This document shows, piece by piece, positions 11,366 through 55,231 of a stretch of DNA of 64,000 nt. A program made the translations under genes and the position numbers. Position 1 is the stretch's first letter. The number at the start of each line of letters is the position of its first letter. The notes beneath the pieces were generated by a model that was not told the origin of the DNA, made no database searches, and saw only the letters and a list, made by a program, of their open reading frames with translations. Source of the stretch: a virus (taxonomy: Duplodnaviria > Caudoviricetes); the IMG/VR virus record IMGVR_UViG_3300031857_000001; one strand, written 5' to 3'.

Positions 11366-11725
11366 ATGAGAAAAATAGTAAGACTTACAGAATCAGATTT
11401 AGTAAGATTGGTTAAAAGGGTTATAAATGAACAGGATGGAAAAAGTGACCCTTTGGTAAATGATGTAGACCCAGTTAGTTATTTAAAAAATAAATTGGGT
11501 TATAGAGTTGAGGACACAAGAAATGCGAGCGGATTTACAACACTTTACAATGGTAATACCCCCGACACAAGTAAAAAAGTTATTTCAATATATCACCCTA
11601 TTGGTGCAAAAAATAATTATTATATATCAGTAAGAAAAAATGGAGTTGATAAAAAGTTTGATGGAGGTAGTTTAGGGTTTGGAAAAAACCTTTTTGATAA
11701 AGTTATAAATTACGTTAATATATAA
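11366..11725 (+). CDS. late protein with N-terminal RLTESDL leader
   Basis: MRKIVRLTESDLVRLVKRVINEQ; TATTTATA at 11343-11350. Confidence 0.75.
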   Translation: MRKIVRLTESDLVRLVKRVINEQDGKSDPLVNDVDPVSYLKNKLGYRVEDTRNASGFTTLYNGNTPDTSKKVISIYHPIGAKNNYYISVRKNGVDKKFDGGSLGFGKNLFDKVINYVNI

Positions 11726-11731
11726 AAAAAC

Positions 11732-11757
11732 AAAACCCCTCCGAAGAGGGGTTTTTT
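11732..11757. terminator. bidirectional terminator
   Basis: AAAACCCCTC-CGAA-GAGGGGTTTTTT between the convergent ORF and tmRNA. Confidence 0.85.
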
Positions 11758-11771
11758 AATTTAACAAAGTG

Positions 11772-12146
11772 TGGAGGTATGGGGAGTCGAACCCCTTCCT
11801 ACTCATCTTAACTACTAAGCCCTACATGTTTAGGTCAACATCGATTCTCAATGTTCCGAAATATTGGTTTTTGAGCTCTTAAAACCACAAACGAGTTTTG
11901 TTTCTTTTAGGGTAGAAACCACACCGCAACTACGACTTCTGTTCCAAGGTTGTGTGTCTGCCGACCCGTTTTGTAGGCTAATCCTAGATTAGGCTACTGA
12001 AATGTTCTCCTCAGTACGGATAAGACCAACTGCAGAGAGTTTGTTGATAACGTTGTCGTTTATCATGTGAACCAGTTTTACAAGGTTAGTTCAGCCTCGA
12101 CATGCTCCGAGTAATCAACCATGCTAGTCAATTCCAAGTTACCCCC
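11772..12146 (-). ncRNA. ssrA: tmRNA
   Basis: 5' GGGGGTA pairs with 3' TACCTCC including G3:U70; GGAATTGAC 5' motif; GGGGTTCGACTCCCC T arm; tag ORF 12057-11989 encodes DNVINKLSAVGLIRTEENISVA. Confidence 0.92.
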
Positions 12147-12220
12147 ATATTTCAAATAACGTGATACAAAGATATAAATAGTTTATCGGTATTCCAAGTA
12201 TTTATATAAAAAGTTTTTTA

Positions 12221-13285
12221 ATGGAACTATATAAATCGCTTTTACAATTTCGTGATTCAAATTTAAACCCTATATTTGTTAAAGAGGCCGATGATGATAG
12301 AATTGTAAAGGTTACAAGAGTAAATGAAAAAAATAGAGGAAAGTCTTTAGTTGAATTAAGATTCACTGAGGAAGAATATATGAATATATTCATAGATGAC
12401 AAAGACAATTACAATAATAATGCTTCAATAATCGCCGCTTGTGAAAGTAGATATTCAGGTAACTTATTTGTTGACACTTATTGGGGTGATGATGAGATGA
12501 GACAAGGGTACACACTTCATTATCTTAATGAAGAAAATTTAACTTTATTTAAAAATATTATAAAATTGGTTAACCCTCCACTTGCTTATTTTGAAATTGG
12601 TAATAATGAAGATGTTGGTGAATTTTTCTATCAGAATTTTAGTAATGAGGCTAGTGAAATTGGAGGTTATTATGCGGACTATTATGACGAAACGTTAAAG
12701 GCCGGTTGTTTAGAATATGTTAATAAAAAATTATGTGGTAAATTTGATAATTTTGGAATTATTGAAAAAGAGTGTAAAGAAGTATACCTTACAACTGTTA
12801 GTAGTTTAATTTATTTTTGGGACAAAACAAAAACTCCTCACGAGGATAGTTTGATTGACATGTTTAAGAATTTCGTTGGACAAAATAATTTAGAGTTTGA
12901 CGAAGATTTATATGAGGATTATTATGCATATTGGGGCAACGAGAATTGGGATGGAGATGGGTTCAATAGAGAGGTTAACAGAATTTTGGATAGGTTATAT
13001 AATAGGTTAGTTGAGAATACAGACCCTGAAGAACTTGAAAAAATGCAAAAATTTTATAAGTTATTGGACAAACTTAACTACGGAGCCGGTCAATGGTATA
13101 ATTTTCCAGCACAAAAAACTTTTGGAAAGAAAAACGAAAATAAAATATTCAAAATTGAAGGGTTTGAAGATGGAAAAATTAAAATATTACATAAACCTGA
13201 CAAAAACAATTTTTACGGTGTCGAAAAAAGGTATGTAGAGGTTGATGATTTCTATAACTTTTTGTATCACCCTGAATTATTTTAA
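12221..13285 (+). CDS. hypothetical acidic late protein
   Basis: 354-aa ORF; TATTTATA at 12199-12206; ends HPELF. Confidence 0.75.
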   Translation: MELYKSLLQFRDSNLNPIFVKEADDDRIVKVTRVNEKNRGKSLVELRFTEEEYMNIFIDDKDNYNNNASIIAACESRYSGNLFVDTYWGDDEMRQGYTLHYLNEENLTLFKNIIKLVNPPLAYFEIGNNEDVGEFFYQNFSNEASEIGGYYADYYDETLKAGCLEYVNKKLCGKFDNFGIIEKECKEVYLTTVSSLIYFWDKTKTPHEDSLIDMFKNFVGQNNLEFDEDLYEDYYAYWGNENWDGDGFNREVNRILDRLYNRLVENTDPEELEKMQKFYKLLDKLNYGAGQWYNFPAQKTFGKKNENKIFKIEGFEDGKIKILHKPDKNNFYGVEKRYVEVDDFYNFLYHPELF

Positions 13286-13327: not shown

Positions 13328-14155
13328 ATGCAAAGAGACCTAAATTTACTTAAATCTGTTTTATCCGTACCAACAAAAACTTATCAAGAAGATTTGATGA
13401 TTGAGTTTTTGATTGATTGGTTAACCAAAAATAACATTGAATATTCTGTTGATGAACATTGGAATGTTTATGCGACAAAGGGTGAAACTACAGATGATAA
13501 TTTTTATTATCCTTGTGTAGTTGCTCACACCGATACCGTACATGATATCGATGTTATTAATATTAGAGAAGAAGAACTGGAAAACTATCAAGGTGAAATA
13601 AAACCATCCCTGAAAGCTTATAACGATTTCGGTAGACCGACCGGTATTGGTGGTGATAATAAATGTGGTGTTTTTGCTTGTTTGGAATTATTAAAAGAAC
13701 TTGACCATTTAAAGGCTGTGTTTTTTGTTTCAGAAGAAACAGGATGTCACGGTTCAAGAAAGGCTGACCCAAATTTCTTTTCTGACGTTGGTTATGCGAT
13801 TCAATTTGACGCTCCGTTTAACTGGATGGTAACTGAGTTTTGTATGGGGGTTAAATTGTTTGAAAAATCAGAAGAATTCTTTAAAAAATGTGACAATGTA
13901 ATAAAAGAAACATTCCAAGGTAGACAAAAGTATGGGTCTCATCCTTATACCGACGTTTACGCACTAAAGAATAAGTTTGATTTCTCTTGTATAAACATTT
14001 CAATTGGATATTACAATTATCACACTGAAGAAGAATACGTTGTGATTGAGGACACTTTCAATGGTGTTGATACAGGTAAAAAAATGATTGAGTCATTGGG
14101 TAATAAAAAATATTATTTGACCCCTCGTAAGGATTCTCAGTTTTTACTTTTCTAA
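13328..14155 (+). CDS. zinc metallopeptidase (M20/M28/M42 clan)
   Basis: VAHTDTVH, GGDNKCG, SEETGC, FD, YHTEEE motifs. Confidence 0.85.
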   Translation: MQRDLNLLKSVLSVPTKTYQEDLMIEFLIDWLTKNNIEYSVDEHWNVYATKGETTDDNFYYPCVVAHTDTVHDIDVINIREEELENYQGEIKPSLKAYNDFGRPTGIGGDNKCGVFACLELLKELDHLKAVFFVSEETGCHGSRKADPNFFSDVGYAIQFDAPFNWMVTEFCMGVKLFEKSEEFFKKCDNVIKETFQGRQKYGSHPYTDVYALKNKFDFSCINISIGYYNYHTEEEYVVIEDTFNGVDTGKKMIESLGNKKYYLTPRKDSQFLLF

Positions 14156-14177
14156 GATATTTATAAAAAAAAATATC

Positions 14178-14555
14178 ATGGGAAAAGTTATAAGATTGTC
14201 AGAATCCGATTTGGAAAAAATAGTACAAAAAGTAATTGAGGAACAAGAAACCCAAGAAGGTTTAGGTGACATATACCAAGGTTTAAAGGGTGTTTGGAGA
14301 GGAGAAGGTTATGATTATTTTAAATACTTAAGTTCTTTAAGAGGTATTACTCGTAAATTAAAAAAATTAGATGAACCTAATGTTAGAGTCATGGGCGATT
14401 TATATCAACTCAGGACTAAAGTGGATACATCTAAAATGCCAACGGATAAAAAAAGTAATTTACTTAATACTATCGACGCTGCTATGGACCACTTCAAATC
14501 TTATTCAACTCTGATTAATAAAATTGAACAACTATCAACACAAAAATTAGCATAA
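14178..14555 (+). CDS. late protein with N-terminal RLSESDL leader
   Basis: MGKVIRLSESDLEKIVQKVIEEQ; TATTTATA at 14158-14165. Confidence 0.75.
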   Translation: MGKVIRLSESDLEKIVQKVIEEQETQEGLGDIYQGLKGVWRGEGYDYFKYLSSLRGITRKLKKLDEPNVRVMGDLYQLRTKVDTSKMPTDKKSNLLNTIDAAMDHFKSYSTLINKIEQLSTQKLA

Positions 14556-14567: not shown

Positions 14568-16613
14568 TTATTCCCCTTTTTTCTTTCTTGGTTTTTTAAC
14601 CGTAATAGGTTTATTTTCAATAATATTTATTTCTTTATTGTCTACAGATAGTCGATATTCTCCATTTTCGATAATATTGCCCTTTAGAACTTCTTCAGAA
14701 ATATAGTCTTCAATTTTATCTTGAATGGCTCTCTTAAGAGGCCTAGCTCCAAACTGCTCGTCAAAACCAACTTCAGATATTAGTTCAACAACATTTTCTT
14801 CGTAAGAAATATTGTATTTTAAATTTACTAAACGCTTACAAAGTTTATCAAGTTCAAGTTTAACAATTTGTTGTATGTCTTCTTTTTTCAAATTGTTAAA
14901 TACAATAACCTCATCAATACGATTTAAAAATTCAGGAGCGAAAAACTTTTGAAGTTCTTTTTTAAGAACATCTCTCTTATATTCTTCCTCAATATAAGAG
15001 TTAACACTCTTAAAACCAATTCCAGCACCGAACTCTTGTAATTTTTTGGCTCCAATATTCGAGGTCATAATAATGACACAATTTTTAAAGTTGATTTTTC
15101 TTCCCAATCCATCGGTTACGTGACCATCGTCTAACACCTGAAGTAAGGTTGAAAAAATATCCTTATTGGCTTTTTCAATCTCATCAAATAATATAACCGA
15201 ATATGGTTTATTCTTAACTTGTTCTGTCAACTGCCCGCCTTCATCATAACCAACATATCCTGGAGGAGCTCCAATCAATCGAGATATTGTATGTTTCTCT
15301 TGGAATTCGGACATATCAATTCTGATAAGATTATCTTCACTACCAAAAATTTGTTTTGCAAGTTCTTTTGCTAACAATGTTTTTCCAATACCTGTAGAAC
15401 CTAAGAATATGAATGAACCAATTGGTTTGTTTGGGTCCTTAATCCCTAATCTATTTCTTCTAATTGATTTGGCGATTTTAGATACTGCGGAATCCTGACC
15501 AATAACCTTTCCTGAAAGTTCCTCCTCTAATGACGCCAATTTTTTGGTTTCATCTGAATTTAATTTAGAGATAGGTATTTTGGTCATATTTGATACCGTT
15601 TCATAAACTAAATCAGTGGTTATTTCCTTTTTTTGTAATATCAAATCATCATCGAATTTCTTTTTCTCATCCTCTAGTTTCCCCAAAATTTTCTTTTCCT
15701 TATCCCTAAGGTTTGCCGCTTCTTCATAGTTTTGTTTCTTAACAACTTCTATTTTTTGTTGTTTTATTTCGGCGGCTTGTTGTTTTAGTTGGTCAATTAC
15801 TTCGGGTACTTTAATCTCAACTTGACTTCTGGCACCCACTTCGTCGATAATGTCGAAAGCCTTATCAGGGAATTCTCTATCTGTAATATATCGCTCAGCC
15901 AAATCAACGCATAGGGTTAAAATTTCGTCAGAATATTTAACTTTGTGATAATTTTCATACTTATCCTTGATATTTTTCAAAATAAGAAATGTCTCATGTT
16001 TTGTTGCAGAATCAACAATAACTTTTTGAAATCTCCTTTCTAAAGCCCCATCCTTCTCAAAATTCTTTCTATACTCATCCAACGTCGTTGCTCCGACACA
16101 TTGAATCTCCCCACGGGCAAGTGCTGGTTTAAATATGTTGGACGCATCTAACGAACCTGATGAATTTCCGGCACCAACTATTGTATGAATTTCATCAATA
16201 AAAACAATAATATTTGGTGACGATTGTAATTCTTCGATGATAACCTTCATTCTTTCTTCAAACTGACCACGATACTTAGTTCCCGCAACAATCGATGTCA
16301 TATCTAAAGATACAATTCTTTTGTCCATAAGATTTCTAGGGCAATCTCCATTGAAAATTTTAATGGCTAATCCCTCAACAATAGCGGTTTTACCACAACC
16401 TGGTTCACCAATGATGATTGGATTGTTCTTTTTTCTTCTCGCCAAAATCTGAGCGATTCTTGTTATCTCTCTTTCTCTACCAATAACAGGGTCTAATTTA
16501 CCTTCCTCAGCTAGTTTTATTAAATCTCTACTGAAATTATCAAGGACTGGAGTTGACGAATCTCCTTTTGATTTGCTTTTGCTCTTTCCGTCATTATCCA
16601 TTGGTTCGGTCAT
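14568..16613 (-). CDS. clpC: ClpC-like Hsp100 AAA+ ATPase lacking the N-terminal Clp-repeat domain
   Basis: Two AAA modules (GEPGCGKT/IDEIH; GSTGIGKT/FDEIEK), UVR-type M domain YEEAANLRDKE, GIGF loop; starts directly at the LDNFSRDL linker. Confidence 0.9.
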   Translation of the reverse strand: MTEPMDNDGKSKSKSKGDSSTPVLDNFSRDLIKLAEEGKLDPVIGREREITRIAQILARRKKNNPIIIGEPGCGKTAIVEGLAIKIFNGDCPRNLMDKRIVSLDMTSIVAGTKYRGQFEERMKVIIEELQSSPNIIVFIDEIHTIVGAGNSSGSLDASNIFKPALARGEIQCVGATTLDEYRKNFEKDGALERRFQKVIVDSATKHETFLILKNIKDKYENYHKVKYSDEILTLCVDLAERYITDREFPDKAFDIIDEVGARSQVEIKVPEVIDQLKQQAAEIKQQKIEVVKKQNYEEAANLRDKEKKILGKLEDEKKKFDDDLILQKKEITTDLVYETVSNMTKIPISKLNSDETKKLASLEEELSGKVIGQDSAVSKIAKSIRRNRLGIKDPNKPIGSFIFLGSTGIGKTLLAKELAKQIFGSEDNLIRIDMSEFQEKHTISRLIGAPPGYVGYDEGGQLTEQVKNKPYSVILFDEIEKANKDIFSTLLQVLDDGHVTDGLGRKINFKNCVIIMTSNIGAKKLQEFGAGIGFKSVNSYIEEEYKRDVLKKELQKFFAPEFLNRIDEVIVFNNLKKEDIQQIVKLELDKLCKRLVNLKYNISYEENVVELISEVGFDEQFGARPLKRAIQDKIEDYISEEVLKGNIIENGEYRLSVDNKEINIIENKPITVKKPRKKKGE

Positions 16614-16933: not shown

Positions 16934-18610
16934 ATGAGTAGTTTAAAAGATATTCTTTCAAGTTTTCATCTACAAGATGAACTGAATCCAAAAATTTGGT
17001 CCAAAGACGGACAAAAAATGAATCCAAAGGTCCGTGAAAGACTATTGGAGATAACCAATGACTTTGTAGAATTTTTGGGTGTTGACATCATTGTTACTGA
17101 TGTGATAATGACAGGTTCACTGGCCAATTATAATTGGTCAAAATTTTCTGATATTGATTTACACATAGTTGCAAATTTTTCTCAATTCTCAGAAGAACAA
17201 TTACCTCTATATGAAGAGTTATTTAAACTTAAAAAAACTTTATATAACGACAAACATAATATAAAGATTTTCGGTTATGACGTTGAGTTATACGTTCAAA
17301 ATGAAACTGAAATTCATTTTAGTAGTGGCGTTTATTCCGTGTTGTTTGATGAATGGAGTAACGAACCTAAAAAAGAATCAGTTAAAGTTGATAAAGAACT
17401 TATTAAAGTTAAATCACAACAATGGATGGATATTATTGATAGTGTGATTGAAAATGCGTCTGATGAGCCATTAGAAAGGGCTAAAAAAATAATAAAAAAA
17501 TATAAAGATAAGTTAAAAAAATATAGAACATGCGGTTTAGAAAAGGATGGGGAATATTCAGATGAGAATTTGGTCTTTAAAGTTCTAAGAAGAAATGGAT
17601 ATATTGAAAAATTATTTAATTTTGAAAACCAACACACCGATAAACAACTGTCTTTAAAAGAACAAGAGGAGGATGAGGAATATTCAAATGTCATATCTAG
17701 TTTAGTTGATTTATCGAAAAAAAATATAACATTAATTAACGAACCAAAACCAAAAGGTCAAAAAACTTTTAATCCTGATACTGAAATACTCCAAAATGCT
17801 TTAATTTTAATGGGTTATCCTTTACCTAAATTTGGAGTTGACGGTAAATTTGGAAAAGAAACACAAACTGCCGTAGAATCTTTCGAAGATGAAAATGGGT
17901 TGAATGTTGACGGAAAAGTTGATTCAAATGATTTCAAAAAAATGTCAGAAGTTATTTTTAAAAGAAAACCTGTTAAAAGTTTAGAACCTATAAAATCAAA
18001 GGAAACCGAATTAATTGTTAAAAAAGAACCAAAAATTGTTGTTCCATCAGGTTCAGTTGATTTTAGACAAATTACAAGAAATGTAATCAACAATTTGGAA
18101 GGTGGTTATTATAATCCAAATTGGCATAGTACAAAAGGAATGGGAAGGTCTGGTGAAACCATGTTTGGAATCGATAGGAGACACGGAGGTAAATACAATA
18201 CAAGCGCACCTGGAATTAAATTTTGGAGTATAATTGATAAAAATAAAAATCCAAAAACTTGGAAATATAATTATAGAGGAGGAAGTTTGGAGGGAGAATT
18301 AACTGATTTAGTTGTTGATATAATTCAGCCATTCTATAATGAATTCAAGGATAGATATCTTTCACCTGAAGCTAAAAAAATTGTTGATAGCGACTCAAGA
18401 TTAACTTTCCATTTCGCTTATGCTGTTTGGAATGGTCCAGGATGGTTTAGAAAATTTGCAAGAGTTATTAATAAATCAGTTGAGAAAGGTCAAACTAATC
18501 CAAATATACTAGCAAAAACCGCAATTAGAAGTAGAGTTGATAGTGGTAATAGTTTGATTGCTAAGGGTGGTAGAAAGATTGATGACGTTCTTGGAATTAA
18601 CGCGGCTTAA
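16934..18610 (+). CDS. fusion: pol-beta-type nucleotidyltransferase + peptidoglycan-binding domain + GH108-like lysozyme
   Basis: GSLANYNWS..SDIDLH and DVELY; LQNALILMGY..GVDGKFGKETQTAVESF...GLNVDG; EGGY...GETMFGI. Confidence 0.75.
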   Translation: MSSLKDILSSFHLQDELNPKIWSKDGQKMNPKVRERLLEITNDFVEFLGVDIIVTDVIMTGSLANYNWSKFSDIDLHIVANFSQFSEEQLPLYEELFKLKKTLYNDKHNIKIFGYDVELYVQNETEIHFSSGVYSVLFDEWSNEPKKESVKVDKELIKVKSQQWMDIIDSVIENASDEPLERAKKIIKKYKDKLKKYRTCGLEKDGEYSDENLVFKVLRRNGYIEKLFNFENQHTDKQLSLKEQEEDEEYSNVISSLVDLSKKNITLINEPKPKGQKTFNPDTEILQNALILMGYPLPKFGVDGKFGKETQTAVESFEDENGLNVDGKVDSNDFKKMSEVIFKRKPVKSLEPIKSKETELIVKKEPKIVVPSGSVDFRQITRNVINNLEGGYYNPNWHSTKGMGRSGETMFGIDRRHGGKYNTSAPGIKFWSIIDKNKNPKTWKYNYRGGSLEGELTDLVVDIIQPFYNEFKDRYLSPEAKKIVDSDSRLTFHFAYAVWNGPGWFRKFARVINKSVEKGQTNPNILAKTAIRSRVDSGNSLIAKGGRKIDDVLGINAA

Positions 18611-26402: not shown

Positions 26403-27125
26403 ATGATTAAGTTCGGAAATATTAAATCAAAGATTGAAGAAAAGTTACTTGAATCTTATTCTAACAATACTTTTAAATCTGAAATGAAGACTTTTAAGTC
26501 TTTGGTTTTAGGTAATAAAAATATTAGTAAACTATTTTATCTTTACGATGAGATGAGTTCTAATAAAGGTTTAAATGAATCTTTGGTTAATGACTACATT
26601 TATGAGTGTATTACAGTTTATGAAAATACCGTAAATAAAATCGACGAATCTACAATCTCTAAATTGAAATCTTGGGTTTCAAATGTTAAGTGTGACAACA
26701 AATATGAAAATATTGACAATTTATTTTCAACTGATGTTTTAACAATTGAATCTCGTTTAAAGAGTAAAAAAATTATTTCTGAAAATTTAATTAAATCACC
26801 TGAAACCAAAAAGACAGAAACTGTTAATTTACCAATATCAACAATGGTTAATATTGCAAATAAAACATTTTCAAATTATGTCGAAAATTTAAATGAATCT
26901 GATAGACAGGAATTAATTAAATTTTTAAAGACAGAGGATTCTGAATTAGAACCACAATTTGAGTCAATTAAAGATGAGGTTAAATCAAAATTAACTTCAT
27001 TAAAAGAAAACACGACAGATACTGACACTTTAAATAGAGTTGAGGAAACAATAACAAAAGTTGATTCTGAGACGTATAACAAATTGTCATTCTTCAAATT
27101 AAAAGGATTAAACGAAAGCCTTTAA
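26403..27125 (+). CDS. hypothetical protein, head cluster
   Basis: ATG 26403 follows TATTTATA 26383-26390; helical, LNES motifs. Confidence 0.75.
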   Translation: MIKFGNIKSKIEEKLLESYSNNTFKSEMKTFKSLVLGNKNISKLFYLYDEMSSNKGLNESLVNDYIYECITVYENTVNKIDESTISKLKSWVSNVKCDNKYENIDNLFSTDVLTIESRLKSKKIISENLIKSPETKKTETVNLPISTMVNIANKTFSNYVENLNESDRQELIKFLKTEDSELEPQFESIKDEVKSKLTSLKENTTDTDTLNRVEETITKVDSETYNKLSFFKLKGLNESL

Positions 27126-27900: not shown

Positions 27901-28626
27901 ATGAATCATCAAATCATACAACCTGGTCAAATCGGAAAGGGAATACTTGTTGAATACGACGCAGGGTATATATCACCAACCGAACAACGTAATGCGGATT
28001 TAATACGTGAATCTAAGGGAATGCTTGACCACTCAAAACCATTTGAGTTCTATGCGGTATTACAAAAGTATAATACCCCAAATAGAAACGGAAGAGTATA
28101 TCCTGAGAAAGTATTAAAGAGAGAAGCGGATAATTATAAAAAAATGATTGACAAGGGTATTGCGTTATCTGAACTTAACCACCCTGAATCTTCACTTGTT
28201 GATTTAGATAGAGTTTCACATGCAATAACTGAAATATGGTGGGAAGGACCTGTTTTAATGGGTAAATTAAAACTATTAACTTCACCAGGGTTTCATGAAA
28301 GAGGAATTGTTTCAACTAAGGGAGACCAAGCCGCAAATCTGTTAAGACAAGGTGTTACTTTAGGTATTTCATCTCGTGGAGTTGGGTCTTTAAAAAAGGT
28401 TGGAGAACATAATGAAGTTCAGAATGATTTTGAAATAATTTGTTTTGACCTTGTGTGGTCACCATCTACACCTGGCGCTTATTTATTCTTAGAACCAAAT
28501 GATAGATTTAATTTTGAAGAAAACTTAGAGGAAGAGAATAAAATGAAGTCTCAAAGAGTTTCTGATGAAAGTTCAAACAAATCGCTTGACTTAATGAAAA
28601 AATTGAACGATTATTTGAAGTACTAA
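27901..28626 (+). CDS. prohead core protease (T4 gp21-like)
   Basis: NRNGRVYP, ELNHP, RVSH, LGISSRGVGS, FDLVWSPSTPGA. Confidence 0.93.
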   Translation: MNHQIIQPGQIGKGILVEYDAGYISPTEQRNADLIRESKGMLDHSKPFEFYAVLQKYNTPNRNGRVYPEKVLKREADNYKKMIDKGIALSELNHPESSLVDLDRVSHAITEIWWEGPVLMGKLKLLTSPGFHERGIVSTKGDQAANLLRQGVTLGISSRGVGSLKKVGEHNEVQNDFEIICFDLVWSPSTPGAYLFLEPNDRFNFEENLEEENKMKSQRVSDESSNKSLDLMKKLNDYLKY

Positions 28627-28977: not shown

Positions 28978-30471
28978 ATGGCAAAAGAAAAATCAATTGT
29001 TGAAGAGGCAATCATCCAAATGAAAAACTTGGAAGAAGCGGTTGCTGAAAATGCAAAAGGAATACTTGCTTCTACTATGAAGGAAGAAATCAAAGAACTA
29101 GTAAAGGAATCTCTATCTGAACAAGAAGAAGAAGAGATTGGAATGACTGATGTAGACATGGAAGGACCTGAAATGGAAACAGATGACGAAATGGATTCTG
29201 ATGACATGGAAATGGGTATGGACATGGATACTGATGACGAAGAGGAAGATATGGAAGAACCAATCGACCTTACCGACAAGTCAGACGAAGAAGTACTTCG
29301 TGTATTTCAACTTATGGGACCTGATGACAACATCATCGTTACAAAAGACGATGCTGGTAACATCAATATCAAAGATGAAGAAAATGAATACATGATTGTA
29401 GGTGAATCTGACGAAGAAATGGAAGAAGAATTCTATGAGGGAGAAGAAATGGAAGAATCTATGGAAATGGAAGAAGAATCCGATGAAATGGAAAAACCAT
29501 ATTCTACTGACGAATCAATTGAAGACATTGTTTCTAGAATGTTTGATGATGAAGAATCAGACGAAGAAGAAATGGATTCGGACGATGACATGGAATTTAG
29601 CGATGAATATTCAGAAGGTGATGAGATTATGTACGAAATCGAAATGTCTGATGACTCCGATAATGAAGAGGAGGGAGAAGAAAATGAAGGGATTATGTAC
29701 GAAATCGAAATGTCTGATGAAGACAATGAAGAGGAAGAGTATGACGAATACAATGAATCTTTAGAAGAGTCTAAAAAGGCGTTCAAAGCAAAAGGTAAGA
29801 ACACGGGTAAACCAAAATTCTCATATAATAAAAATCCAAATCAAGGCGAAGGTTTTAAAGTTCTTAAAAAGAATCCTGACAAAACTATGGGTACAGGTAA
29901 CGCTAAAAAAGTTAATGTATACAAAGATAAGGAAACTCTTGATGGTGAATTTAAACACAAGCCAAAGAAAGTGGAATCAAATGAAGCATCAAGAACACTT
30001 GGTAGTGGCAAAAGATGGGGTAGAAAAGGTTTGAACAAACCAAAAGCGGCTCCACGTCACTTAAAAGTTGAGTCTGTAGATTCTTCTGAATTACAAATTC
30101 TTAGAGAGAAAAACGAAGAGTACAGAAAGGCACTTAACGTGTTCAGAAATAAATTAAACGAAGTTGCGGTTTTTAATTCAAATTTGGCCTATGCAACACG
30201 TTTGTTTACCGAACACTCAACATCTAAGCAAGAAAAAATTAACATCTTGAAAAGATTTGACGGTGTTGAAACTCTTAAAGAATCAAAGAATTTGTATAAA
30301 ACAATCAAGGAAGAACTTTCAACTGTACAAAGTCAACCAATGAATGAGTCAATCGAGCGTAAAATTGAATCGACTCCATCGACAGGTTCTGCGGTTAACT
30401 TAATTGAGTCAAAAACTTATGAAAATCCTCAATTCCTCAGAATGAAAGACTTGATGGCAAAATTAAAATAA
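28978..30471 (+). CDS. prohead scaffolding protein (T4 gp22-like position)
   Basis: Very acidic, between protease and MCP; C-terminal LIESKTYENPQFLRMKDLMAKLK. Confidence 0.8.
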   Translation: MAKEKSIVEEAIIQMKNLEEAVAENAKGILASTMKEEIKELVKESLSEQEEEEIGMTDVDMEGPEMETDDEMDSDDMEMGMDMDTDDEEEDMEEPIDLTDKSDEEVLRVFQLMGPDDNIIVTKDDAGNINIKDEENEYMIVGESDEEMEEEFYEGEEMEESMEMEEESDEMEKPYSTDESIEDIVSRMFDDEESDEEEMDSDDDMEFSDEYSEGDEIMYEIEMSDDSDNEEEGEENEGIMYEIEMSDEDNEEEEYDEYNESLEESKKAFKAKGKNTGKPKFSYNKNPNQGEGFKVLKKNPDKTMGTGNAKKVNVYKDKETLDGEFKHKPKKVESNEASRTLGSGKRWGRKGLNKPKAAPRHLKVESVDSSELQILREKNEEYRKALNVFRNKLNEVAVFNSNLAYATRLFTEHSTSKQEKINILKRFDGVETLKESKNLYKTIKEELSTVQSQPMNESIERKIESTPSTGSAVNLIESKTYENPQFLRMKDLMAKLK

Positions 30472-30498: not shown

Positions 30499-32358
30499 AT
30501 GGGAGCATTATTAGAATCAGGTCTTGTTGGTAACATTGGTCTTAAGCACCTTAAAGTTATCAAAGAAGATACTATTAACAAATGGGACAAATTAGGGTTC
30601 CTTGAAGGTCTTAAGGGCCACCTAAAAGAGAACGTAGCTCAGCTTTATGAAAACCAAGCTAGTTACTTGATTAACGAAGCAACTTCTGACGGTTCTTCAG
30701 GTTCATTCGAAACTGTTGTATTCCCAATCGTTAGACGTGTATTCTCAAAATTACTTGCTAATGATATCGTATCAGTACAAGCTATGAACTTACCTATCGG
30801 TAAATTGTTCTACTTCGTACCTAAGATTCAGGCTTATGCGGGTGGTAACCCATATTTTGACCCACAAACACCATTAAATAATTATGATGGTTCTTCAGGT
30901 TCTCACTTGGGTCCTGTAGGTGCTCCTGGTAACTACCCTGGTTCACCAACATCAGGATATACAACTGGTAACCAATTCCAAAAGAATCTTTATGATTTGT
31001 TCTATGAAGGTAACGAAGGTCAATTAGACCCTCCAGGTTTGTTTGACTATTCAAAAGGTCAGTGGTCTGCAATTACAGTTACTACAAATGTTCAAGTTTG
31101 GTCAAACGGAACATTGATTGACTATACTAACGAATTCGAAGGTTTGAATGTTAGAAAAGTTATCGTTTCTATGTGTGGTTTTGCTAACGCAGGTAACGGT
31201 AAATTGATTGGTCCTGATGGTAATGAGTATGACTCAGAAACTTTCTTGTCTGACTTGAGAATTTACTCAACAAATGACTTCCAAGGTGGTGGTTGTACAA
31301 ACTTATTGGACGACGCTGGTAATCCAAATTCATTATTGTTCAGAGTTGTTACTCAACAATATGGTCAAGGTATCGTTTCAGGTTTGAATGTTCGTACTGC
31401 AACAACATGGCCAACTGACGGAAATGGTGGTTCTTATAATGATATTTGTAGCCCAACAGGTTGCATCTACTTAGAAGTTGACCTTTCTTGTCCAATTTGT
31501 GCTACTTGTGATTCAACATCTTTAGATGGTTACACAGGTACAACTATTAGCGGTCTTGGTGTTAATGACTTTAACGCTGTATTCAGACGTTATAAGAACT
31601 TAGAATTCGAAGACCAAATCGGTGAGGTTTCTTTTGACCTTGAGTCTGTAACTGTTTCAGTTGCTGAAAGAAAGTTAAGAGCTCAGTGGTCTCCAGAACT
31701 TGCACAAGACGTTGCGGCATTCCACAACATCGACGCTGAAGCTGAATTGACAGCTTTATTGTCAGAGCAAGTTGCTGCTGAAATTGACCGTGAAATTCTT
31801 CGTGACCTTCGTAAGGGTGCCGCTTGGAACTTACGTTGGGACTACAACGGTTGGAGAAGAATTTCTCAAACTACATCTTACACTCAGAAAGATTGGAACC
31901 AAACATTGATTACTGTAATCAACCAATTGTCAGCTCAAATCCACAAGTCAACTCTTCGTGGTGGAGCTAACTGGATTGTTGTATCATCTGAAGTTTCAGC
32001 AATCTTTGATGACTTGGAATATTTCCACGTTTCAAATGCGTCTCCTGAGCAAGACCAATACAACATGGGTATTGAAAGAGTGGGTACTTTGGCTGGTCGT
32101 TACCAGGTTTATCGTGACCCATACTTCCCACCAAACCAAGTATTGATTGGTCACAAAGGTACATCGTTACTTGACACTGGTTACATTTACGCACCGTATG
32201 TACCACTTCAATTAACTCCAACCATGTACAATCCATTCAACTTCACACCAATCAAAGGTATCATGACTCGTTACGCCAAAAAAATGGTAAATAACAGGTT
32301 CTATGCCAGAATTACAGTTGATGGTGTTCGTACATTTGATTTAAGAGAATTGAGATAA
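30499..32358 (+). CDS. major capsid protein (T4 gp23-like) with large Cys-rich insertion
   Basis: LLESG, LINEA, VSVQAMNLPIGKLFY, RKLRAQWSPELAQD...DAEAELTALLSEQVAAEIDRE, YAPYVPL, MTRYA. Confidence 0.96.
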   Translation: MGALLESGLVGNIGLKHLKVIKEDTINKWDKLGFLEGLKGHLKENVAQLYENQASYLINEATSDGSSGSFETVVFPIVRRVFSKLLANDIVSVQAMNLPIGKLFYFVPKIQAYAGGNPYFDPQTPLNNYDGSSGSHLGPVGAPGNYPGSPTSGYTTGNQFQKNLYDLFYEGNEGQLDPPGLFDYSKGQWSAITVTTNVQVWSNGTLIDYTNEFEGLNVRKVIVSMCGFANAGNGKLIGPDGNEYDSETFLSDLRIYSTNDFQGGGCTNLLDDAGNPNSLLFRVVTQQYGQGIVSGLNVRTATTWPTDGNGGSYNDICSPTGCIYLEVDLSCPICATCDSTSLDGYTGTTISGLGVNDFNAVFRRYKNLEFEDQIGEVSFDLESVTVSVAERKLRAQWSPELAQDVAAFHNIDAEAELTALLSEQVAAEIDREILRDLRKGAAWNLRWDYNGWRRISQTTSYTQKDWNQTLITVINQLSAQIHKSTLRGGANWIVVSSEVSAIFDDLEYFHVSNASPEQDQYNMGIERVGTLAGRYQVYRDPYFPPNQVLIGHKGTSLLDTGYIYAPYVPLQLTPTMYNPFNFTPIKGIMTRYAKKMVNNRFYARITVDGVRTFDLRELR

Positions 32359-32448: not shown

Positions 32449-32859
32449 ATGAATCTTAGAGAAAGTATAAAAAAACATCTTATCCTTGAAAAAAGAATTG
32501 GTCAAATTGCAACCAATTTTGAGGTTACTTTTGGTTTTGATGTCATAACCACAAAACATTCAAATTACAGAAGTGGCGGAAGAGATTTAGATGATTATAA
32601 TCAAAGACCTGTATCTAATGCGGAAATTGTCGAATTTATCCAAAATTTTAAAAGAGATATTGCGGAAAAAATACTGACAGGTGAAATTCAACAAAGTGAA
32701 CCATTTGTTCTTGTTTCTAACAGATGGGAACTTGCTATGGCTGTTTCGGCTGAGAGAGAATCTGGTACTTATTGGAAACTTGTTGTAATAACTGTATTCA
32801 GACAATCGGACCTTTATAAGTTCAAAGTAGGTAAAGACCAAGTTGTGATAGAAAAATAG
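32449..32859 (+). CDS. hypothetical late protein
   Basis: MNLRESIKKHLILE N-terminus; TATTTATA 32437-32444. Confidence 0.7.
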   Translation: MNLRESIKKHLILEKRIGQIATNFEVTFGFDVITTKHSNYRSGGRDLDDYNQRPVSNAEIVEFIQNFKRDIAEKILTGEIQQSEPFVLVSNRWELAMAVSAERESGTYWKLVVITVFRQSDLYKFKVGKDQVVIEK

Positions 32860-39118: not shown

Positions 39119-39134
39119 TTATTAATTATTACAT

Positions 39135-39191: not shown

Positions 39192-39199
39192 ATTAAAAT

Positions 39200-43174: not shown

Positions 43175-43188
43175 AAACTATGTATTTT

Positions 43189-43245
43189 AAAAAAAGGAGG
43201 TCACTTAGACCTCCTTTTTTATTTTATAGATATTTATAAAGAAAA
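43189..43245 (+). repeat. terminator + late promoter cassette, copy 3
   Basis: GGAGGTC-ACTTA-GACCTCC-TTTTTTATTTTATAGATATTTATAAAGAAAA. Confidence 0.9.
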
Positions 43246-43278
43246 ATAAAATAGTTATCACAATAAAAAAAAGATAAT

Positions 43279-49200: not shown

Positions 49201-49299
49201 CCAACACCAACGGCAACATCGGCGTTAGAACCACTTACAATAGTTTACACATTAACCGACCCGAATAATTTCAATTTAAAGGGTGTAATAATAAAATAA
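43279..49299 (+). CDS. 2006-aa multidomain putative virion fibre/adhesin (duplicated propeller-like domain, delta-60-like repeats, TP tract)
   Basis: Two homologous QCG...SRTLDKMF...[16 protein letters not shown] units; [19 protein letters not shown] repeats; ~200-aa TPT tract near the C-terminus. Confidence 0.6.
48729..48987 (+). repeat. perfect 127-bp duplication (period 132 bp, 44 aa)
   Basis: 48729-48855 = 48861-48987, [42 protein letters not shown]. Confidence 0.85.
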
Positions 49300-50436: not shown

Positions 50437-50940
50437 ATGAAGAAAGTAGTAAGATTAACAGAATCAGAATTAATTAACGTTATCCAACGTATTATAAAAG
50501 AAGGTCAATCCGAAATTGATTCAATTTTGGATAAGATAAACCGTGTTGGTTTTGATGGATTAACTCCAAAAGAACAATCATATCTCAGACATTATTCTGA
50601 AACAGGAGAATATAAAGATGATGAGGAACTTGTAACAAGGTCTCAATCATTTGACTATGAACATAGGTTTTCAGATAACATAGGTGGAGTTGATATGACA
50701 TTTAAATACGAATCAACTGAGGATACTCCTGATGAGATGATTCACAGTGGTTATTTGGAAATTAATAACGATGAGTTCTATGGTGAAATTTATTGTGACA
50801 CAGATGGAACTTACTCAACATGTAATTTTGAGGATGGTGACGGTGTAAATTTATTTGAAAAATATGAAGGTTTGGAACATGAAGTTGAGAATTTTTTAGA
50901 TAACGTATGTGAAGAAATAAAAGGAAACGAAGCGGTTTAA
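50437..50940 (+). CDS. acidic protein with N-terminal RLTESEL leader
   Basis: MKKVVRLTESELINVIQRIIKEG. Confidence 0.75.
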   Translation: MKKVVRLTESELINVIQRIIKEGQSEIDSILDKINRVGFDGLTPKEQSYLRHYSETGEYKDDEELVTRSQSFDYEHRFSDNIGGVDMTFKYESTEDTPDEMIHSGYLEINNDEFYGEIYCDTDGTYSTCNFEDGDGVNLFEKYEGLEHEVENFLDNVCEEIKGNEAV

Positions 50941-50941: not shown

Positions 50942-51403
50942 ATGAAAGACAACAAACTACAAAATCTAATTAAAAAAGTTTTAGAAGAGCAAACTTCTGA
51001 TAGATACATGTTCTTTTCTAATTTAGAACAAATGAGAAGACAATGTGATATATTGTTAAGTAAAAATAGAGATGAAATTGATTCTATTTTGGACAACGGT
51101 CACGATTGGGCTCAAGACCATATTGCTGAAGCGAAGAATAATATGGACCAAGTATTTGATTTTTTAATGAATGAAACCACCGATGAAGGTGATTTAGATG
51201 ACCAATCAGATGAAGAAGAAATGGTTATGATGGAGTCAGAAATATCTGAAAAAGCAAAAAAAAATGTACCCACTAACCCTTCGTTATGGAAAAAATCATT
51301 AGATTGGGCAAGAGCTAGATATAAAGTTTGCCCAAGTGCATATTGTAATGGAGCTGCTGCGAAACATTACAAAAGTAAAGGTGGTAAGTGGAGGAGAAAA
51401 TAG
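50942..51403 (+). CDS. hypothetical protein, C-terminal PSAY...GGKW motif
   Basis: KLQNLIKKVLEEQ N-terminus; CPSAYCNGAAAKHYKSKGGKW. Confidence 0.7.
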   Translation: MKDNKLQNLIKKVLEEQTSDRYMFFSNLEQMRRQCDILLSKNRDEIDSILDNGHDWAQDHIAEAKNNMDQVFDFLMNETTDEGDLDDQSDEEEMVMMESEISEKAKKNVPTNPSLWKKSLDWARARYKVCPSAYCNGAAAKHYKSKGGKWRRK

Positions 51404-52261: not shown

Positions 52262-52684
52262 ATGTTAAAAAAGTTAATAATCCGCTACAAGTTATTCCTT
52301 AGAAAAATTAATAAATTTACTTCTATGGAATCTGAGTTATCAAAAGTTAACACAAGTCAATGTACCTTTATTTGTCGTAAATTAATTCATGACAAAAATT
52401 CAGAATTGTTGATTGCTCCAATCTCTGAAAAAATGTACATTAAAAATCAAGAATTAGGTATATTCATAACTAAAGACGGACATGAGGTAACAATTACTAA
52501 CCATACGTATAGTTATTTTATTAAACTCAGCCCAAATCAATCTGAAAAACTAAATAATTTCTTTTTTAAAGAAATGGAAATTAGGGCTAAGATTATGGAA
52601 CGTGAGCTTGAGGGTCAAATTAAACACTCTTTAGATAAGATATTCACAACTATAAGTTCATACGAATCAGAGACCGTTGTTTAA
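52262..52684 (+). CDS. hypothetical early protein
   Basis: ATG 52262 downstream of TATATTTG 52236-52243. Confidence 0.7.
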   Translation: MLKKLIIRYKLFLRKINKFTSMESELSKVNTSQCTFICRKLIHDKNSELLIAPISEKMYIKNQELGIFITKDGHEVTITNHTYSYFIKLSPNQSEKLNNFFFKEMEIRAKIMERELEGQIKHSLDKIFTTISSYESETVV

Positions 52685-53392
52685 AACTGTGTCGATAAGT
52701 CTCTTTATTTGACTCTCAGTAAGTTTAATCTGTTCGTTTTGTTTTTTTGGTTTGTATGAAACCATAGTTGGTGAATTACCCGTTCCTGATTTTGGGTTAC
52801 TTTTTTCAGCTCTTCTTTTTTGTTGGCAGGCGGCTCTTTTTTGAGCGTCTGTCATTTTGGAGGCAACACCTGCTGCTCTACATTTAGGATAACCTTTTGA
52901 ATCCGCCTCAGGTCTACCACAAGGAGGATGACCACCACCTTCTTTTTTTCTACATATATTAACCCATGGACCTTTTGGTTGTTTACTTCCCTTAGGTTTC
53001 TTTTTAGTACCAAACCAAACACCTAAATCCTCTAATACAGTACTTTCAGTAATCTCAATCCATTCATTAAGTTTACCAGGTGTTGGATTGATTATATCAC
53101 CGTCATCGTCACTAATTGTTGGATGATTTTTTTTATAGTTCGATATTTTATTGGATTTTTTTTCCATTTTTTTAATCTTTTTTTTAGGTTCGTCCATGTG
53201 TCCGTCTAAACTATCGTAGTTTAATTCGGCATTATTATATTTTGATACTTGAATTGAAAATGGAGATAATTGATTTTTATCAAATTTTTTTAATCCTGGT
53301 TGTATAGGAAGACTATAAGAACCTCTACTACCATTTTCAGAAGTGGCTTCGGTTAGGTATTGTATAATTTTATTTTTTAAATCCATTAACAA
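52667..53392 (-). CDS. basic hypothetical late protein with C-terminal KLTESQI motif
   Basis: WFG...GPWVNIC...PPCGR...YPKCR; ends QIKLTESQIKRLIDTVLNNGL; late motif 53415-53422. Confidence 0.7.
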   Translation of the reverse strand: MLMDLKNKIIQYLTEATSENGSRGSYSLPIQPGLKKFDKNQLSPFSIQVSKYNNAELNYDSLDGHMDEPKKKIKKMEKKSNKISNYKKNHPTISDDDGDIINPTPGKLNEWIEITESTVLEDLGVWFGTKKKPKGSKQPKGPWVNICRKKEGGGHPPCGRPEADSKGYPKCRAAGVASKMTDAQKRAACQQKRRAEKSNPKSGTGNSPTMVSYKPKKQNEQIKLTESQIKRLIDTVLNNGL

Positions 53393-53437
53393 AGTCTTTT
53401 TTATTGACTATAATTATAAATATCTAATTACGGTAAA

Positions 53438-53677
53438 ATGGAAAATATCGAAAACAAAGAATTCGGCAAATTATTTAACTCAGTTTCATTAATAAGTGAA
53501 GAACATTTGGAGTTAATATTAACAACAATGTCTCAAAAAGAATCGATTTATTTATTGGTGCAAGCTGTTAAGCACGCTCATCATTTGGGTACTTATTCTA
53601 TCGGAGAAACTGAGGTAATATCTAAAGCAATCAGAGTTATCTCTAAAATAACCGATGATGAACCAAATAATATTTAA
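53438..53677 (+). CDS. hypothetical protein
   Basis: 79-aa ORF. Confidence 0.65.
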   Translation: MENIENKEFGKLFNSVSLISEEHLELILTTMSQKESIYLLVQAVKHAHHLGTYSIGETEVISKAIRVISKITDDEPNNI

Positions 53678-53679
53678 AT

Positions 53680-54348
53680 TTAAGCAGTAGTTGTATTAGT
53701 TGTCTGAGTACTACCTGTTACCGGTGTTGTTTGTTTCGCGGGAAACGCACTACAACCTTCAAATACAGACTCGTCTCTAACAATAAATCCGTCAGTTATA
53801 CATCTTCTTAAAGCGTTACATAAATCTTGACTTGCAACACCTTCTTTAAACGGATTTAGAGGAGTTACCGCTCTACCAATTGTCCTACACATTTCTTTAG
53901 TTAATTTGGCCTGAGTCTTTGCCCTTTCCGCTTCCATTTTGGCTTGAGTTATTGCTAAATCCGCCAGTTCTTTTGTTTTAATATCAGCAGTTAATTGAGC
54001 TAAAGTTGAGGCGATTTTTAACTCAGGTTTTGGTGCTTCAGGTGATGAGAGTTGAGTAACTTCTTTACTTTTAATCGGAGCCAAATTAGCCGCGGCATCC
54101 TTCATTTGTTTTCTATTTTCAATTTCACCAATAGCTTGAGTAATAGCCGAATAAGTCATTTTACCAAATTTATTATCAGCACCAGTTTTACCTAACATAT
54201 CACCATAACCCAATTTAACTAATTTGTTTTGAATATCTTGTAATGTTACTGGTTTTTCGGCCGCTTGTTCTAAAACAATATTTTTTTGAGAGTATAAACT
54301 CACTATTTCATTTTTATCTTCTTCTGTTAAAATAAATCTTTTGTTCAT
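53680..54348 (-). CDS. LTEE-leader protein with peptidoglycan-binding-like segment
   Basis: MNKRFILTEEDKNEIVSLY; IQNKLVKLGY...GADNKFGKMTYSAI. Confidence 0.6.
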   Translation of the reverse strand: MNKRFILTEEDKNEIVSLYSQKNIVLEQAAEKPVTLQDIQNKLVKLGYGDMLGKTGADNKFGKMTYSAITQAIGEIENRKQMKDAAANLAPIKSKEVTQLSSPEAPKPELKIASTLAQLTADIKTKELADLAITQAKMEAERAKTQAKLTKEMCRTIGRAVTPLNPFKEGVASQDLCNALRRCITDGFIVRDESVFEGCSAFPAKQTTPVTGSTQTTNTTTA

Positions 54349-54358
54349 TTTTTTTATA

Positions 54359-55231
54359 TTATTGAGAGAGTTTATCCATTATCGCCTTTAACGTTTTTGG
54401 TCCTAAAATTCCATCATCTTTAACTCCTACCTTAGTTTGTAAATCTTTAATTCTTGTAACATTTGGATTTTCTTGGCCACCACTAACTACTGGTTCTGGT
54501 TTAGGTTGGACGGTTTGTAAAAATATTTTATCCTGACAACTCCAACTAGATTTTGTACCATCAGGAGATACTTTAGTACCGTCATTATAATACCAATAAT
54601 CACCAACAACATAAGCTACTTTTTCCTTATTATTACCATAATAGACTACCTCAGCTAACGGGTATTCGGTTATACAAGGATAATTTTCCTTGAATTTTTT
54701 TAATTCTGAATTTTGTTTATAAATTACATCTTCTGAAGACTTTTTAGTAGTCTTCCAAGAGTCCCATGTTCTCACAATTTCGCCGTCACGACCCCTCACT
54801 GAAATCCATTCGTTGAAAACTTTTACAGTTGTCAACCACTCTTGAATTTGAGTTTTTAACGAATTACTTTGATTAAATTTTCCTCTGAATTCTCTACCAT
54901 CAGACATTTTTATTGTTATTGTTTTTTGGTCGGTAGACCAACTTCCGGTAACAATTTTATTTTTATAATCATTTTCAACTTTAAAATCAATATAACCATT
55001 TGGGCACACATTACAAATTAAATTATCATATTGTGGACCGTCAAAAATCATAATTTCAACACATCGATTTTCGAGAATTTCTTTTTTTCCTAAACCTATA
55101 GAATCAGCTACTTTAAAAGCGTCCCCTTCCGAGGTTTGTTCATTAATTAAATAATGGTTTTTTGTTGCCGATTCATGAAGACCGAGTATTCTATTTTTCT
55201 CTTCTTCAGTTAATACAAATAAATTTTTCAT
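54359..55231 (-). CDS. LTEE-leader protein with C-terminal peptidoglycan-binding-like segment
   Basis: ATG 55231 after late motif 55246-55253: MKNLFVLTEEEKNRILGLHES; IKDLQTKVGVKDDGILGPKTLKAI. Confidence 0.6.
   Translation of the reverse strand: MKNLFVLTEEEKNRILGLHESATKNHYLINEQTSEGDAFKVADSIGLGKKEILENRCVEIMIFDGPQYDNLICNVCPNGYIDFKVENDYKNKIVTGSWSTDQKTITIKMSDGREFRGKFNQSNSLKTQIQEWLTTVKVFNEWISVRGRDGEIVRTWDSWKTTKKSSEDVIYKQNSELKKFKENYPCITEYPLAEVVYYGNNKEKVAYVVGDYWYYNDGTKVSPDGTKSSWSCQDKIFLQTVQPKPEPVVSGGQENPNVTRIKDLQTKVGVKDDGILGPKTLKAIMDKLSQ

Follow-up and report, generated by a model that had tools for sequence, protein, structure and literature searches.

A portable peptide on unrelated late proteins of freshwater Bacteroidota phages: a candidate capsid-targeting tag

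Tagged genes of the window and their promoters

Within the window, by which we mean the whole 64,000-nucleotide stretch of phage DNA that was analysed, three small late genes begin with a peptide of the same kind, the 22-residue M-K-K-(I/V)-(I/V)-R-L-T-E-S-D-L-x-R-(I/L)-V-(K/R)-R-V-I-x-E, referred to here as the type-A tag. The first, the 119-aa ORF 11366-11725 (tag at 11366..11431, 22 codons, plus strand), has an orthologue, P0004, with 95% identity over the query. The second, the 125-aa ORF 14178-14555, bears an RLSES variant (14178..14243, plus strand) on a cargo that is conserved in the clade, and is convergent with a ClpB/C-like ATPase gene. In the third, the 167-aa ORF 50437-50940, a DUF6576-like segment follows directly after the tag (50437..50502, plus strand). 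The next gene, the 153-aa ORF 50942-51403, starts with a decayed type-A tag of which only the helix half is left, ending in V-L-E-E|Q (50942..50989, plus strand); the same body bears a canonical tag in the related complete genome G001 (130110-130604, minus strand). The 239-aa ORF 52667-53386 has a type-A variant at its C-terminus (52670..52732, minus strand), and its L021 orthologue has the canonical tag at its end.

Two further ORFs on the minus strand, starting at 54348 and 55231, carry a second, longer and related tag family, type B: 27 codons ending in V-L-E|Q on the 222-aa ORF 53680-54348 (54268..54348) and 31 codons ending in I-N-E|Q on the 290-aa ORF 54359-55231 (55139..55231). The initial annotation had merged these LTEE peptides with the LTES ones into a single tag, but they form a family of their own. 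An eighth tagged gene, beyond the seven listed earlier, lies just downstream of the major capsid protein (MCP) gene and was recognised by N-terminal clustering; its type-D-like tag (MNLRES...ILE, 32449..32490, plus strand) stands on the 136-aa ORF 32449-32859. The tag families thus number at least four (A-D).

Each of the seven listed peptides was found at the place given for it, and the seven bodies behind them have no BLAST similarity to one another below E=0.05, so that computation supports the description of a portable tag, about 20 residues long, borne by late proteins that are otherwise unrelated. Translating the window in six frames gives four matches to the strict core L[TS]ES[DEQ][LI]..[LIV][IV], each at one end of a real ORF, against none in 300 composition-preserving shuffles. 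The type-A tag is not a product of chance.

A late-type promoter core, TATTTATA, precedes tagged, head and tail units and is found 12-40 nt upstream of the TerL, portal, protease, scaffold and tail genes. One copy (11343..11350, plus strand) is situated 15 nt upstream of the 11366 start; equivalent motif matches are located at 14158, 32437 and 50140 on the plus strand and at 53415-53422 and 55246-55253 on the minus strand. As had been proposed, all tagged genes fall in TATTTATA units and are enriched among late genes: these units hold 8/8 tagged and 21/58 untagged genes (one-sided Fisher p=7e-4, genes sharing a unit not being independent). The promoter motif suggests that the tagged genes would be expressed late, together with the head genes. 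The contigs of two lake metatranscriptome runs, which represent small shares of the region, cover the MCP, scaffold and tmRNA regions, miss 11366 and 14178, and are uninformative on tagged-gene expression. Some tagged genes adjoin giant tail-like genes at 35960-49299.

Spread of the tag, selection and cargo

Among 1.84 billion cluster representatives searched, the type-A tag occurs on about 8,150 protein clusters (50% identity) and is limited to one clade, the roughly 300-kb freshwater Bacteroidota phages ("bS21 phages"), whose genomes have 8-16 type-A copies each, with other tag types in addition. In 119 viral loci, 162 type-A proteins fall into 120 body clusters. The tag may be N-terminal, internal or C-terminal: there is a C-terminally tagged protein family, and some proteins contain two or three tags that alternate with cargo as tag-cargo-tag-cargo, a layout that fits a docking helix that is cut out better than an N-terminal signal.

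A tblastn search with a tagged protein and with the bare tag gave no match in 50,697 cultured or deposited phage records, and neither profile nor pattern detected a tag in Flavobacterium phage immuto, whose MCP (41% identity) makes it the closest cultured relative. The scan of 185,579 species genomes returned six pattern matches, three of which are real tags; all three stand on MAG contigs no longer than 39 kb, which resemble mis-binned phage. The tag is not a cellular motif. Neither Pfam nor PHROGs contains a family covering the tag, and motif strings retrieved nothing relevant from the full-text literature, where no publication describing the tag was found. The tag and a gp21-type protease co-occur across 34 large contigs, a coincidence that carries no weight because every tag-bearing contig comes from a single clade.

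At the invariant tag residues the codons vary synonymously, with up to five codons used and serine drawn from both codon boxes, and the three type-A copies of the window differ at many third positions; selection thus acts on the tag peptide. The same data largely refute the explanation that the shared start is a nucleic-acid-level cassette, a promoter plus translation start maintained for expression (for example with the phage bS21) or for recombination, with the peptide itself neutral. Such a cassette would account for the frequent presence of an own TATTTATA close to the start of tagged genes, and bS21 is indeed encoded inside the head module (PMC9723584). Nevertheless, the tagged genes 50437, 50942 and 54348 lie inside operons and have no promoter of their own, and the tag is also found internally and C-terminally. 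We regard this explanation as highly improbable.

Nearly all tagged cargo lacks any known domain. The initial annotation had ascribed peptidoglycan-binding segments to several of the proteins; in the tagged proteins of the window such matches stay below the Pfam threshold, as does the C-terminal PG_binding_1 match of the 290-aa ORF 54359-55231, whereas in tagged relatives they are significant. When 20 large tagged proteins were compared with Pfam, PG_binding_1 (twice) was alone above threshold. The peptidoglycan-binding and VanY cargo among tagged relatives has no signal peptides, which fits delivery through the envelope.

The tag helix, its boundary and the head genes

In AlphaFold2 models of two tagged proteins, residues 1-7 are disordered, and the tag helix at 9-22, itself of low confidence, is separated from the body by further low-confidence residues. 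The body of the 14178 protein is helical and confidently modelled at 47-121; in the 50437 protein the tag helix has a pLDDT of about 52-55, and confidence is high for the body at 76-166. The type-A tag is best explained as a short extended segment (residues 2-7) followed by one amphipathic basic helix (9-22), with L12, I/L15, V16, V19 and I20 on the hydrophobic face and R14, K17 and R18 on the basic one.

The boundary of the tag is sharp. Glu22 is invariant in 117/117 type-A tags, although it was left free in the search pattern; position 21 is variable, and similarity stops at residue 23, after which a polar linker begins. Read from sequence, the type-A tag thus ends in I20-x-E22, that is, in the (L/I)-x-E motif of prohead proteases. 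Likewise, in 23/26 type-B tags an (L/I/V/M/F)-x-E motif, with Q after it in most cases, is located 19-36 residues from the start. The earlier proposal of an LxE cut within the tag stands insofar as L-T-E9|S10 is a candidate site, but the sharp end of conservation at I-x-E22|Q23 argues against its being the sole one and indicates that the whole 22-residue unit is probably removed. The motif (L/I)-x-E is short and readily arises in amphipathic, Glu-rich helices; T8 and D11 could cap the helix instead of belonging to a cut site.

The phage encodes a gp21-type protease, as the initial annotation had supposed: the gene at 27901..28626 (plus strand) is a T4 gp21 homologue (phrog_207, E=3e-44; PDB 5JBL, E=1.2e-14) that keeps the His (ELNHP) and Ser (SRG) motifs. 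The surrounding gene order is T4-like (portal, core, protease, scaffold, MCP), and the gene of ribosomal protein bS21 lies in this head module. The (L/I)-x-E motifs of the tag resemble those of the phage's own head proteins, since the same rule fits the MCP, the scaffold and the core protein, each aligned with 16 orthologues. The head-core-like protein (26403..27125, plus strand) has a conserved internal (L/I)-(N/T)-E-S-(D/E). The scaffold-like acidic protein, encoded between protease and MCP (28978..30471, plus strand), has a conserved N-terminal helix ending in L-S-E|Q (nt 29113-29124); this L-x-E|Q end of the N-domain is followed by a hypervariable acidic stretch and then by a C-terminal domain that is conserved, as are several (L/I)-x-E|S sites within it. 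In the MCP (gene 30499-32358; phrog_138, E=4e-66), L-I-N-E at residues 57-60 (30667..30678, plus strand) lies in the N-terminal propeptide region, and the candidate maturation site E60|A61 is invariant in the 16 orthologues. This L-I-N-E|A had been placed near the cleavage position of T4 gp23, which is true only to within about 16 residues: in the HMMER alignment with gp23, window residue 65 corresponds to T4 residue 86, and the T4 site E65|A66 maps closer to E44|N45 of the window MCP than to E60|A61.

Profile-profile comparison paired tag positions 11-27 with scaffold positions 37-53 (LVKRVIxEQ/LVKESLxEQ) at a non-significant E=0.27. Complex prediction with the tag alignment and the full scaffold-like protein scored 0.00; it returned no answer and counts neither for nor against docking.

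An amphipathic helix with hydrophobic and basic faces might also be expected of an address used outside the virion, be it a handle for the ClpB/C-like AAA+ ATPase encoded at 14568-16613, a membrane-binding helix or a helix that binds a common host factor. The ATPase is a double-AAA+ Clp-type protein that lacks a protease domain, and its gene converges on the conserved tagged gene 14178; this adjacency, however, is a single syntenic pair. Generic membrane binding would not require invariant R6, L7, T8, E9 and E22, internal and C-terminal tags speak against an N-degron or N-terminal signal, and the presence of the same motif at conserved positions of MCP, scaffold and core would be left unexplained. 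Taken together, these points make an address of this type quite unlikely.

The tag could also dock to another late assembly, such as the outer capsid decoration, neck, tail or baseplate, and be retained there, (L/I)-x-E then being a feature of the helix and not a cut site; the model for this reading is the conserved N-terminal anchors of exchangeable tail-spike or fibre modules. It agrees with the late position of the genes, some of them beside the giant tail-like genes, and with the peptidoglycan-binding cargo, which would suit virion-surface or tail proteins as well, while a tag that hardly varies implies a single conserved receptor, whichever that may be. Yet the number of type-A genes in a genome, together with the other types and the thousands of clusters, is high for proteins that each fill a fixed structural site; a structural anchor is difficult to square with the tag-cargo-tag-cargo proteins; and the point where similarity breaks off is precisely an invariant Glu of a protease motif, with a polar linker after it. 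We consider a retained anchor unlikely.

Relation to known packaging systems and possible function

The reading that we favour, with somewhat better than even confidence, is that the type-A tag corresponds to the T4 capsid targeting sequence (CTS) in a longer, enlarged form, docking and cleavage being the inferred parts. Type A would act as a position-independent docking peptide of 22 residues that attaches to some conserved part of the head core during assembly, and the tagged late proteins may thereby be enclosed as the shell forms. The gp21-type prohead protease would then cut after L-T-E9 and I-x-E22, freeing the cargo and breaking the tag into small peptides, and the cargo would stay in the capsid and probably reach the host cell along with the DNA. 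Types B and D may be sister tags that work in the same way.

In T4, gp21 cleaves after L/I-x-E, propeptides of 10-19 residues serve as capsid targeting sequences of the internal proteins, and Alt is processed at its C-terminus as well (PMC9026906). The tag resembles the CTS of IPI, IPII, IPIII and Alt, removed by gp21, in being a short terminal peptide on unrelated, non-essential-looking late proteins and in ending with (L/I)-x-E, and it is accompanied by a gp21 homologue, a scaffold-like acidic protein and a T4-like head gene order; its C-terminal form has a precedent in Alt processing. By inspection, however, only M-K and a Glu are common to the tag and the T4 CTS MKTYQEFIAE, and with no sequence similarity and no Pfam or PHROG family the tag is to be considered analogous to the CTS, not demonstrably homologous. 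The tags are also longer (22-31 residues against 10-19, type A being twice the length of MKTYQEFIAE), form a defined amphipathic helix with two candidate cut sites, and have internal copies. In contrast to the four CTS proteins of T4, there are 8-16 or more tagged genes per genome, thousands of cargo clusters and at least four tag families. The T4 internal proteins are basic, whereas the tagged cargo is not notably so (46% acidic), and its packaging and cleavage are predictions. Most likely, this uncultured giant lake phage with a T4-type head would load its capsid by such tags before the head protease removes them, in the manner of T4 though on a far larger scale.

In the phages phiKZ, 201phi2-1 and SPN3US, propeptides with several cut sites are presumed to direct proteins into the prohead (PMC5694885). 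Like the phages studied here they are giant, and they process many head-internal proteins after Glu by a diverged gp21-type protease; they belong, however, to a different phage lineage with a different host phylum, and their propeptides, which mostly exceed 100 residues, differ from protein to protein and are cleaved at (S/A/G)-x-E or A-x-E, in contrast to a near-invariant portable 22-mer.

Encapsulin cargo-loading peptides are likewise short, terminal and portable, and dock diverse cargo inside an HK97-fold shell. Unlike the proposed tag, however, they are usually C-terminal, make direct contact with the shell protein, are not cleaved off by a protease and involve no scaffold core.

More tentatively, and with the balance of probability against it, the tag classes A-D might constitute an interchangeable addressing code, by which any gene, or any string of genes joined as a polyprotein, becomes capsid cargo on gaining a tag, each class docking to the head core and being excised by the head protease through a cut on either side. 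The roughly 8,000 clusters could then be a catalogue, legible from sequence itself, of injected effectors, including cell-wall-binding and probably anti-defence proteins. The first wave of injected proteins is the usual place of anti-defence and host-takeover functions. Should the tag be a loading signal, it would provide a sequence-only listing of the proteins that a large group of abundant uncultured freshwater phages inject with their DNA, dozens per genome, where the known CTS set of T4 comprises the internal proteins and Alt. It would also raise the question of which head-core component is the CTS receptor, for which we found no identification in the literature, T4 included. The T4 CTS has served as a packaging handle for foreign proteins, and the tag described here, near-invariant and 22 residues long, with its candidate cut sites mapped, could be used in the same way.

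The shared peptide of the late proteins and its transcription units

All seven peptides listed in the initial annotation were found in the window, and the remainders of the proteins bearing them are indeed unrelated, the bodies having no BLAST similarity to one another. The proposal of one tag recurring on all seven holds for the type-A copies, but the LTEE peptides of the two minus-strand ORFs starting at 54348 and 55231 form a separate, longer family, type B. ORFs 11366, 14178 and 50437 share one 22-residue N-terminal peptide with the type-A consensus M-x-K-(I/V)-(I/V)-R-L-(T/S)-E-S-(D/E)-L-x-x-(L/I/V)-(V/I)-x-(R/K)-(V/I)-I-x-E, the strict core pattern giving four matches in the six-frame translation and none in 300 shuffles. 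A type-A variant lies at the C-terminus of ORF 52667-53386 (minus strand), and clustering placed ORF 32449 in a fourth family, type D. ORF 50942 has the helix half of the tag alone; since its orthologue in G001, a related complete 322-kb IMG/VR genome, joins the canonical tag to the same body, the copy in the window has decayed.

The tag was N-terminal in 160 of 163 loose matches, followed a slightly longer leader in one and was C-terminal in two, which represent a single orthologous family including ORF 52667-53386. All 117 non-redundant N-terminal copies have Glu22, though the search pattern left this position free, while position 21 is variable and only a polar/acidic bias is seen from position 23 onwards; the tag unit thus ends at I-x-E. 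The AlphaFold2 models of two tagged proteins agree in predicting disorder at residues 1-7, a low-confidence helix at exactly 9-22, further low-confidence residues and then a confident body. Synonymous codons are used at the invariant residues (four each for L7 and T8, five each for L12 and R18), S10 is encoded by both TCN and AGT, and third codon positions differ between the three window copies. Because of this variation we conclude that selection acts on the tag peptide and not on DNA or RNA. The idea that the shared start is a nucleic-acid cassette is largely refuted by the codon data, and we regard it as highly improbable.

The motif TATTTATA (mostly as ATATTTATA) is located 12-40 nt upstream of the starts of the terminase (TerL), portal, core, protease, scaffold and giant tail-like genes and is also found upstream of the tagged genes 11366, 14178, 32449, 53386 and 55231; genes 50437, 50942 and 54348 are downstream within units led by it. 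Such units contain 8/8 tagged genes vs 21/58 others (p=7e-4, genes within one unit not being independent), so that, on the basis of the promoter motif, the earlier assignment of all tagged genes to late-type units stands. The tagged genes lie outside the coverage of the RNA contigs. An M20/M42-like metallopeptidase gene (borderline Pfam matches; 13328-14155, plus strand) is situated between two tagged genes in a late unit. A ClpB/ClpC-like double AAA+ ATPase without a protease domain (AAA_2, AAA_lid_9, ClpB_D2-small; 14568-16613, minus strand) is encoded convergently with the clade-conserved tagged gene 14178, an arrangement repeated in G001.

The phage clade and the spread of the tag

The 64-kb window (G+C 32%) contains a T4-type head module with the gene order of T4: TerL (22762), portal (24559), core-like proteins (26403 and 27408), a gp21-type prohead protease (27901-28626; phrog_207, E=3e-44), an acidic scaffold-like protein (28978-30471) and the major capsid protein, MCP (30499-32358; phrog_138, E=4e-66). 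Against the crystal structure of T4 gp21 (5JBL) the protease gives a match at E=1.2e-14, and both its His motif (ELNHP) and its Ser motif (SRG) are retained. Inside this module, a gene for ribosomal protein S21 (27122-27313; Pfam PF01165, E=5e-8) lies on the opposite, minus strand; this is the hallmark of the 'bS21 phages' of freshwater Bacteroidota, with genomes up to 331 kb (Chen et al. 2022, PMC9723584), to which we therefore assign the window. G001 is collinear with it, at 75-90% nucleotide identity in aligned segments. Every large contig that bears tags and covers the head region encodes the same protease (63-80% identity), which indicates that the tag carriers are one clade; a search of Flavobacterium phage immuto, the closest cultured relative by MCP, found no tags. 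Directly 3' of the protease gene, a 69-aa DUF4494-like protein (28638-28847, plus strand) shows 67-96% identity to orthologues from 14 relatives and surpasses both the scaffold-like protein and the core-like proteins in conservation.

Searching a word index with the tag profile yielded 835 proteins; those listed have the near-invariant start MKKVVRLTESDLVRLVKRVINEQ and diverge completely after it, and a few carry VanY, PG_binding_1 or DUF6576 domains, most having none. When 1.84 billion cluster representatives were scanned exhaustively with HMMER, 8,150 clusters passed E<=0.001, of which 891 also passed E<=1e-10. A degenerate DNA pattern matched IMG/VR contigs in at least 119 stretches; among the matches listed from these loci at least 162 type-A proteins fall into at least 120 body clusters. 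Complete genomes have 8-16 type-A tags, often as tandem gene runs. Among 185,579 species genomes there were only three real matches, each on a MAG contig no longer than 39 kb.

Candidate protease sites

In T4, gp21 cleaves after L/I-x-E, and internal proteins have N-terminal propeptides of 10-19 residues that direct them to the core before being removed; several cut sites are often present within one propeptide, and Alt is cut at its C-terminus too (PMC9026906, PMC5694885). Both kinds of site occur within the type-A tag, as L-T-E9|S and I-x-E22|Q, and most type-B tags end with (L/I)-x-E|Q. The head proteins of this clade have the motif at conserved positions too: the conserved N-terminal helix of the scaffold terminates in L-x-E|Q directly before a hypervariable acidic region, and (L/I)-(N/T)-E-S-(D/E) is conserved in the core-like protein 26403. 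The L-I-N-E|A of the MCP N-terminal region, noted earlier as lying near the gp23 cut position, is invariant across 16 orthologues, but T4 E65|A66 maps nearer to E44|N45 of the window protein than to E60|A61; in the HMMER alignment window residue 65 corresponds to T4 residue 86, an offset that places the MCP cut site only to within about 16 residues.

The best available reading of these motifs, and one that we consider somewhat favoured, is T4-like: the tag may load its protein into the head and then be cut off. It would be a docking helix removed from both flanks, the cut at L-T-E| freeing the upstream part and that at I-x-E| the downstream part. A tag that instead persists as an anchor at the virion surface or tail seems unlikely to us. 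As judged from the sequences, the tag is analogous to the capsid targeting sequence (CTS) of T4, homology not being demonstrable: there is no sequence similarity, and the phage tag is twice as long and, unlike the CTS, has a defined helix, two candidate sites, several families, internal copies and thousands of cargo clusters. Our literature search found no paper describing this tag.

Two other proteins have comparable motifs. A 441-aa late protein (21384-22709, plus strand) starts with MSFNPKMKKVINE|K (nt 21384-21425), which resembles a type-A tag reduced to its first and last residues; with two more (L/V)-x-E sites inside the following 50 residues, this may be a processed propeptide. A 558-aa protein (16934-18610, plus strand) has a phrog_36119 N-domain and then an L-K-E|Q junction (residue 241), after which come acidic residues, PG_binding_1 (E=9e-11) and a part like an endolysin; the junction resembles the tag and scaffold boundaries, so the product may be a protease-split polyprotein.

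Cargo and multi-tag proteins

Past the tag the cargo has a median length of 121 residues; among the type-A matches listed, hydrophobic segments are few and charge is mixed, with 46% of the proteins acidic. Almost all lack a Pfam domain, the recurrent exceptions being PG_binding_1 and VanY, both without signal peptides, which would fit proteins reaching the cell wall from the virion. The suggestion that several cargoes have peptidoglycan-binding segments is thus borne out on tagged relatives, but in the tagged proteins of the window itself PG_binding_1 falls below threshold.

In many of the best database matches, tags alternate with cargo (tag-cargo-tag-cargo), two or three tags per protein (P0124, P0125, P0123, P0130, P0134, P0136, P0153), one first cargo being paired with different second cargoes, and in some database proteins a tag is at the C-terminal end. 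The multi-tag proteins could be either polyproteins that exist in nature or products of fused gene calls. A 236-aa ORF (L156:4681-5391, minus strand) carries a type-A tag in its interior, at roughly residues 128-148; it lies on an 11-kb contig assigned to a Candidatus Wolfebacteria MAG, probably phage DNA placed in the wrong bin. Since tags may be internal or repeated, a free N-terminus is not required, which argues against an N-terminal signal, degron or translation-start effect. That the tag is a non-virion address, for example to the phage Clp-type ATPase or to the membrane, we hold to be still less probable than a retained anchor. The multi-tag layout would fit a docking helix that is cut out, with the reservation that some cases may be fused gene calls.

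A DUF6576-like module (ILDKI..G..SL(T/S)..EK..L) directly follows tags of different types in otherwise differing proteins (window 50503-50605, plus strand; P0043, P0046, P0064; L043:807-1331, minus strand; L082:905-1387, plus strand) and may be a second portable module.
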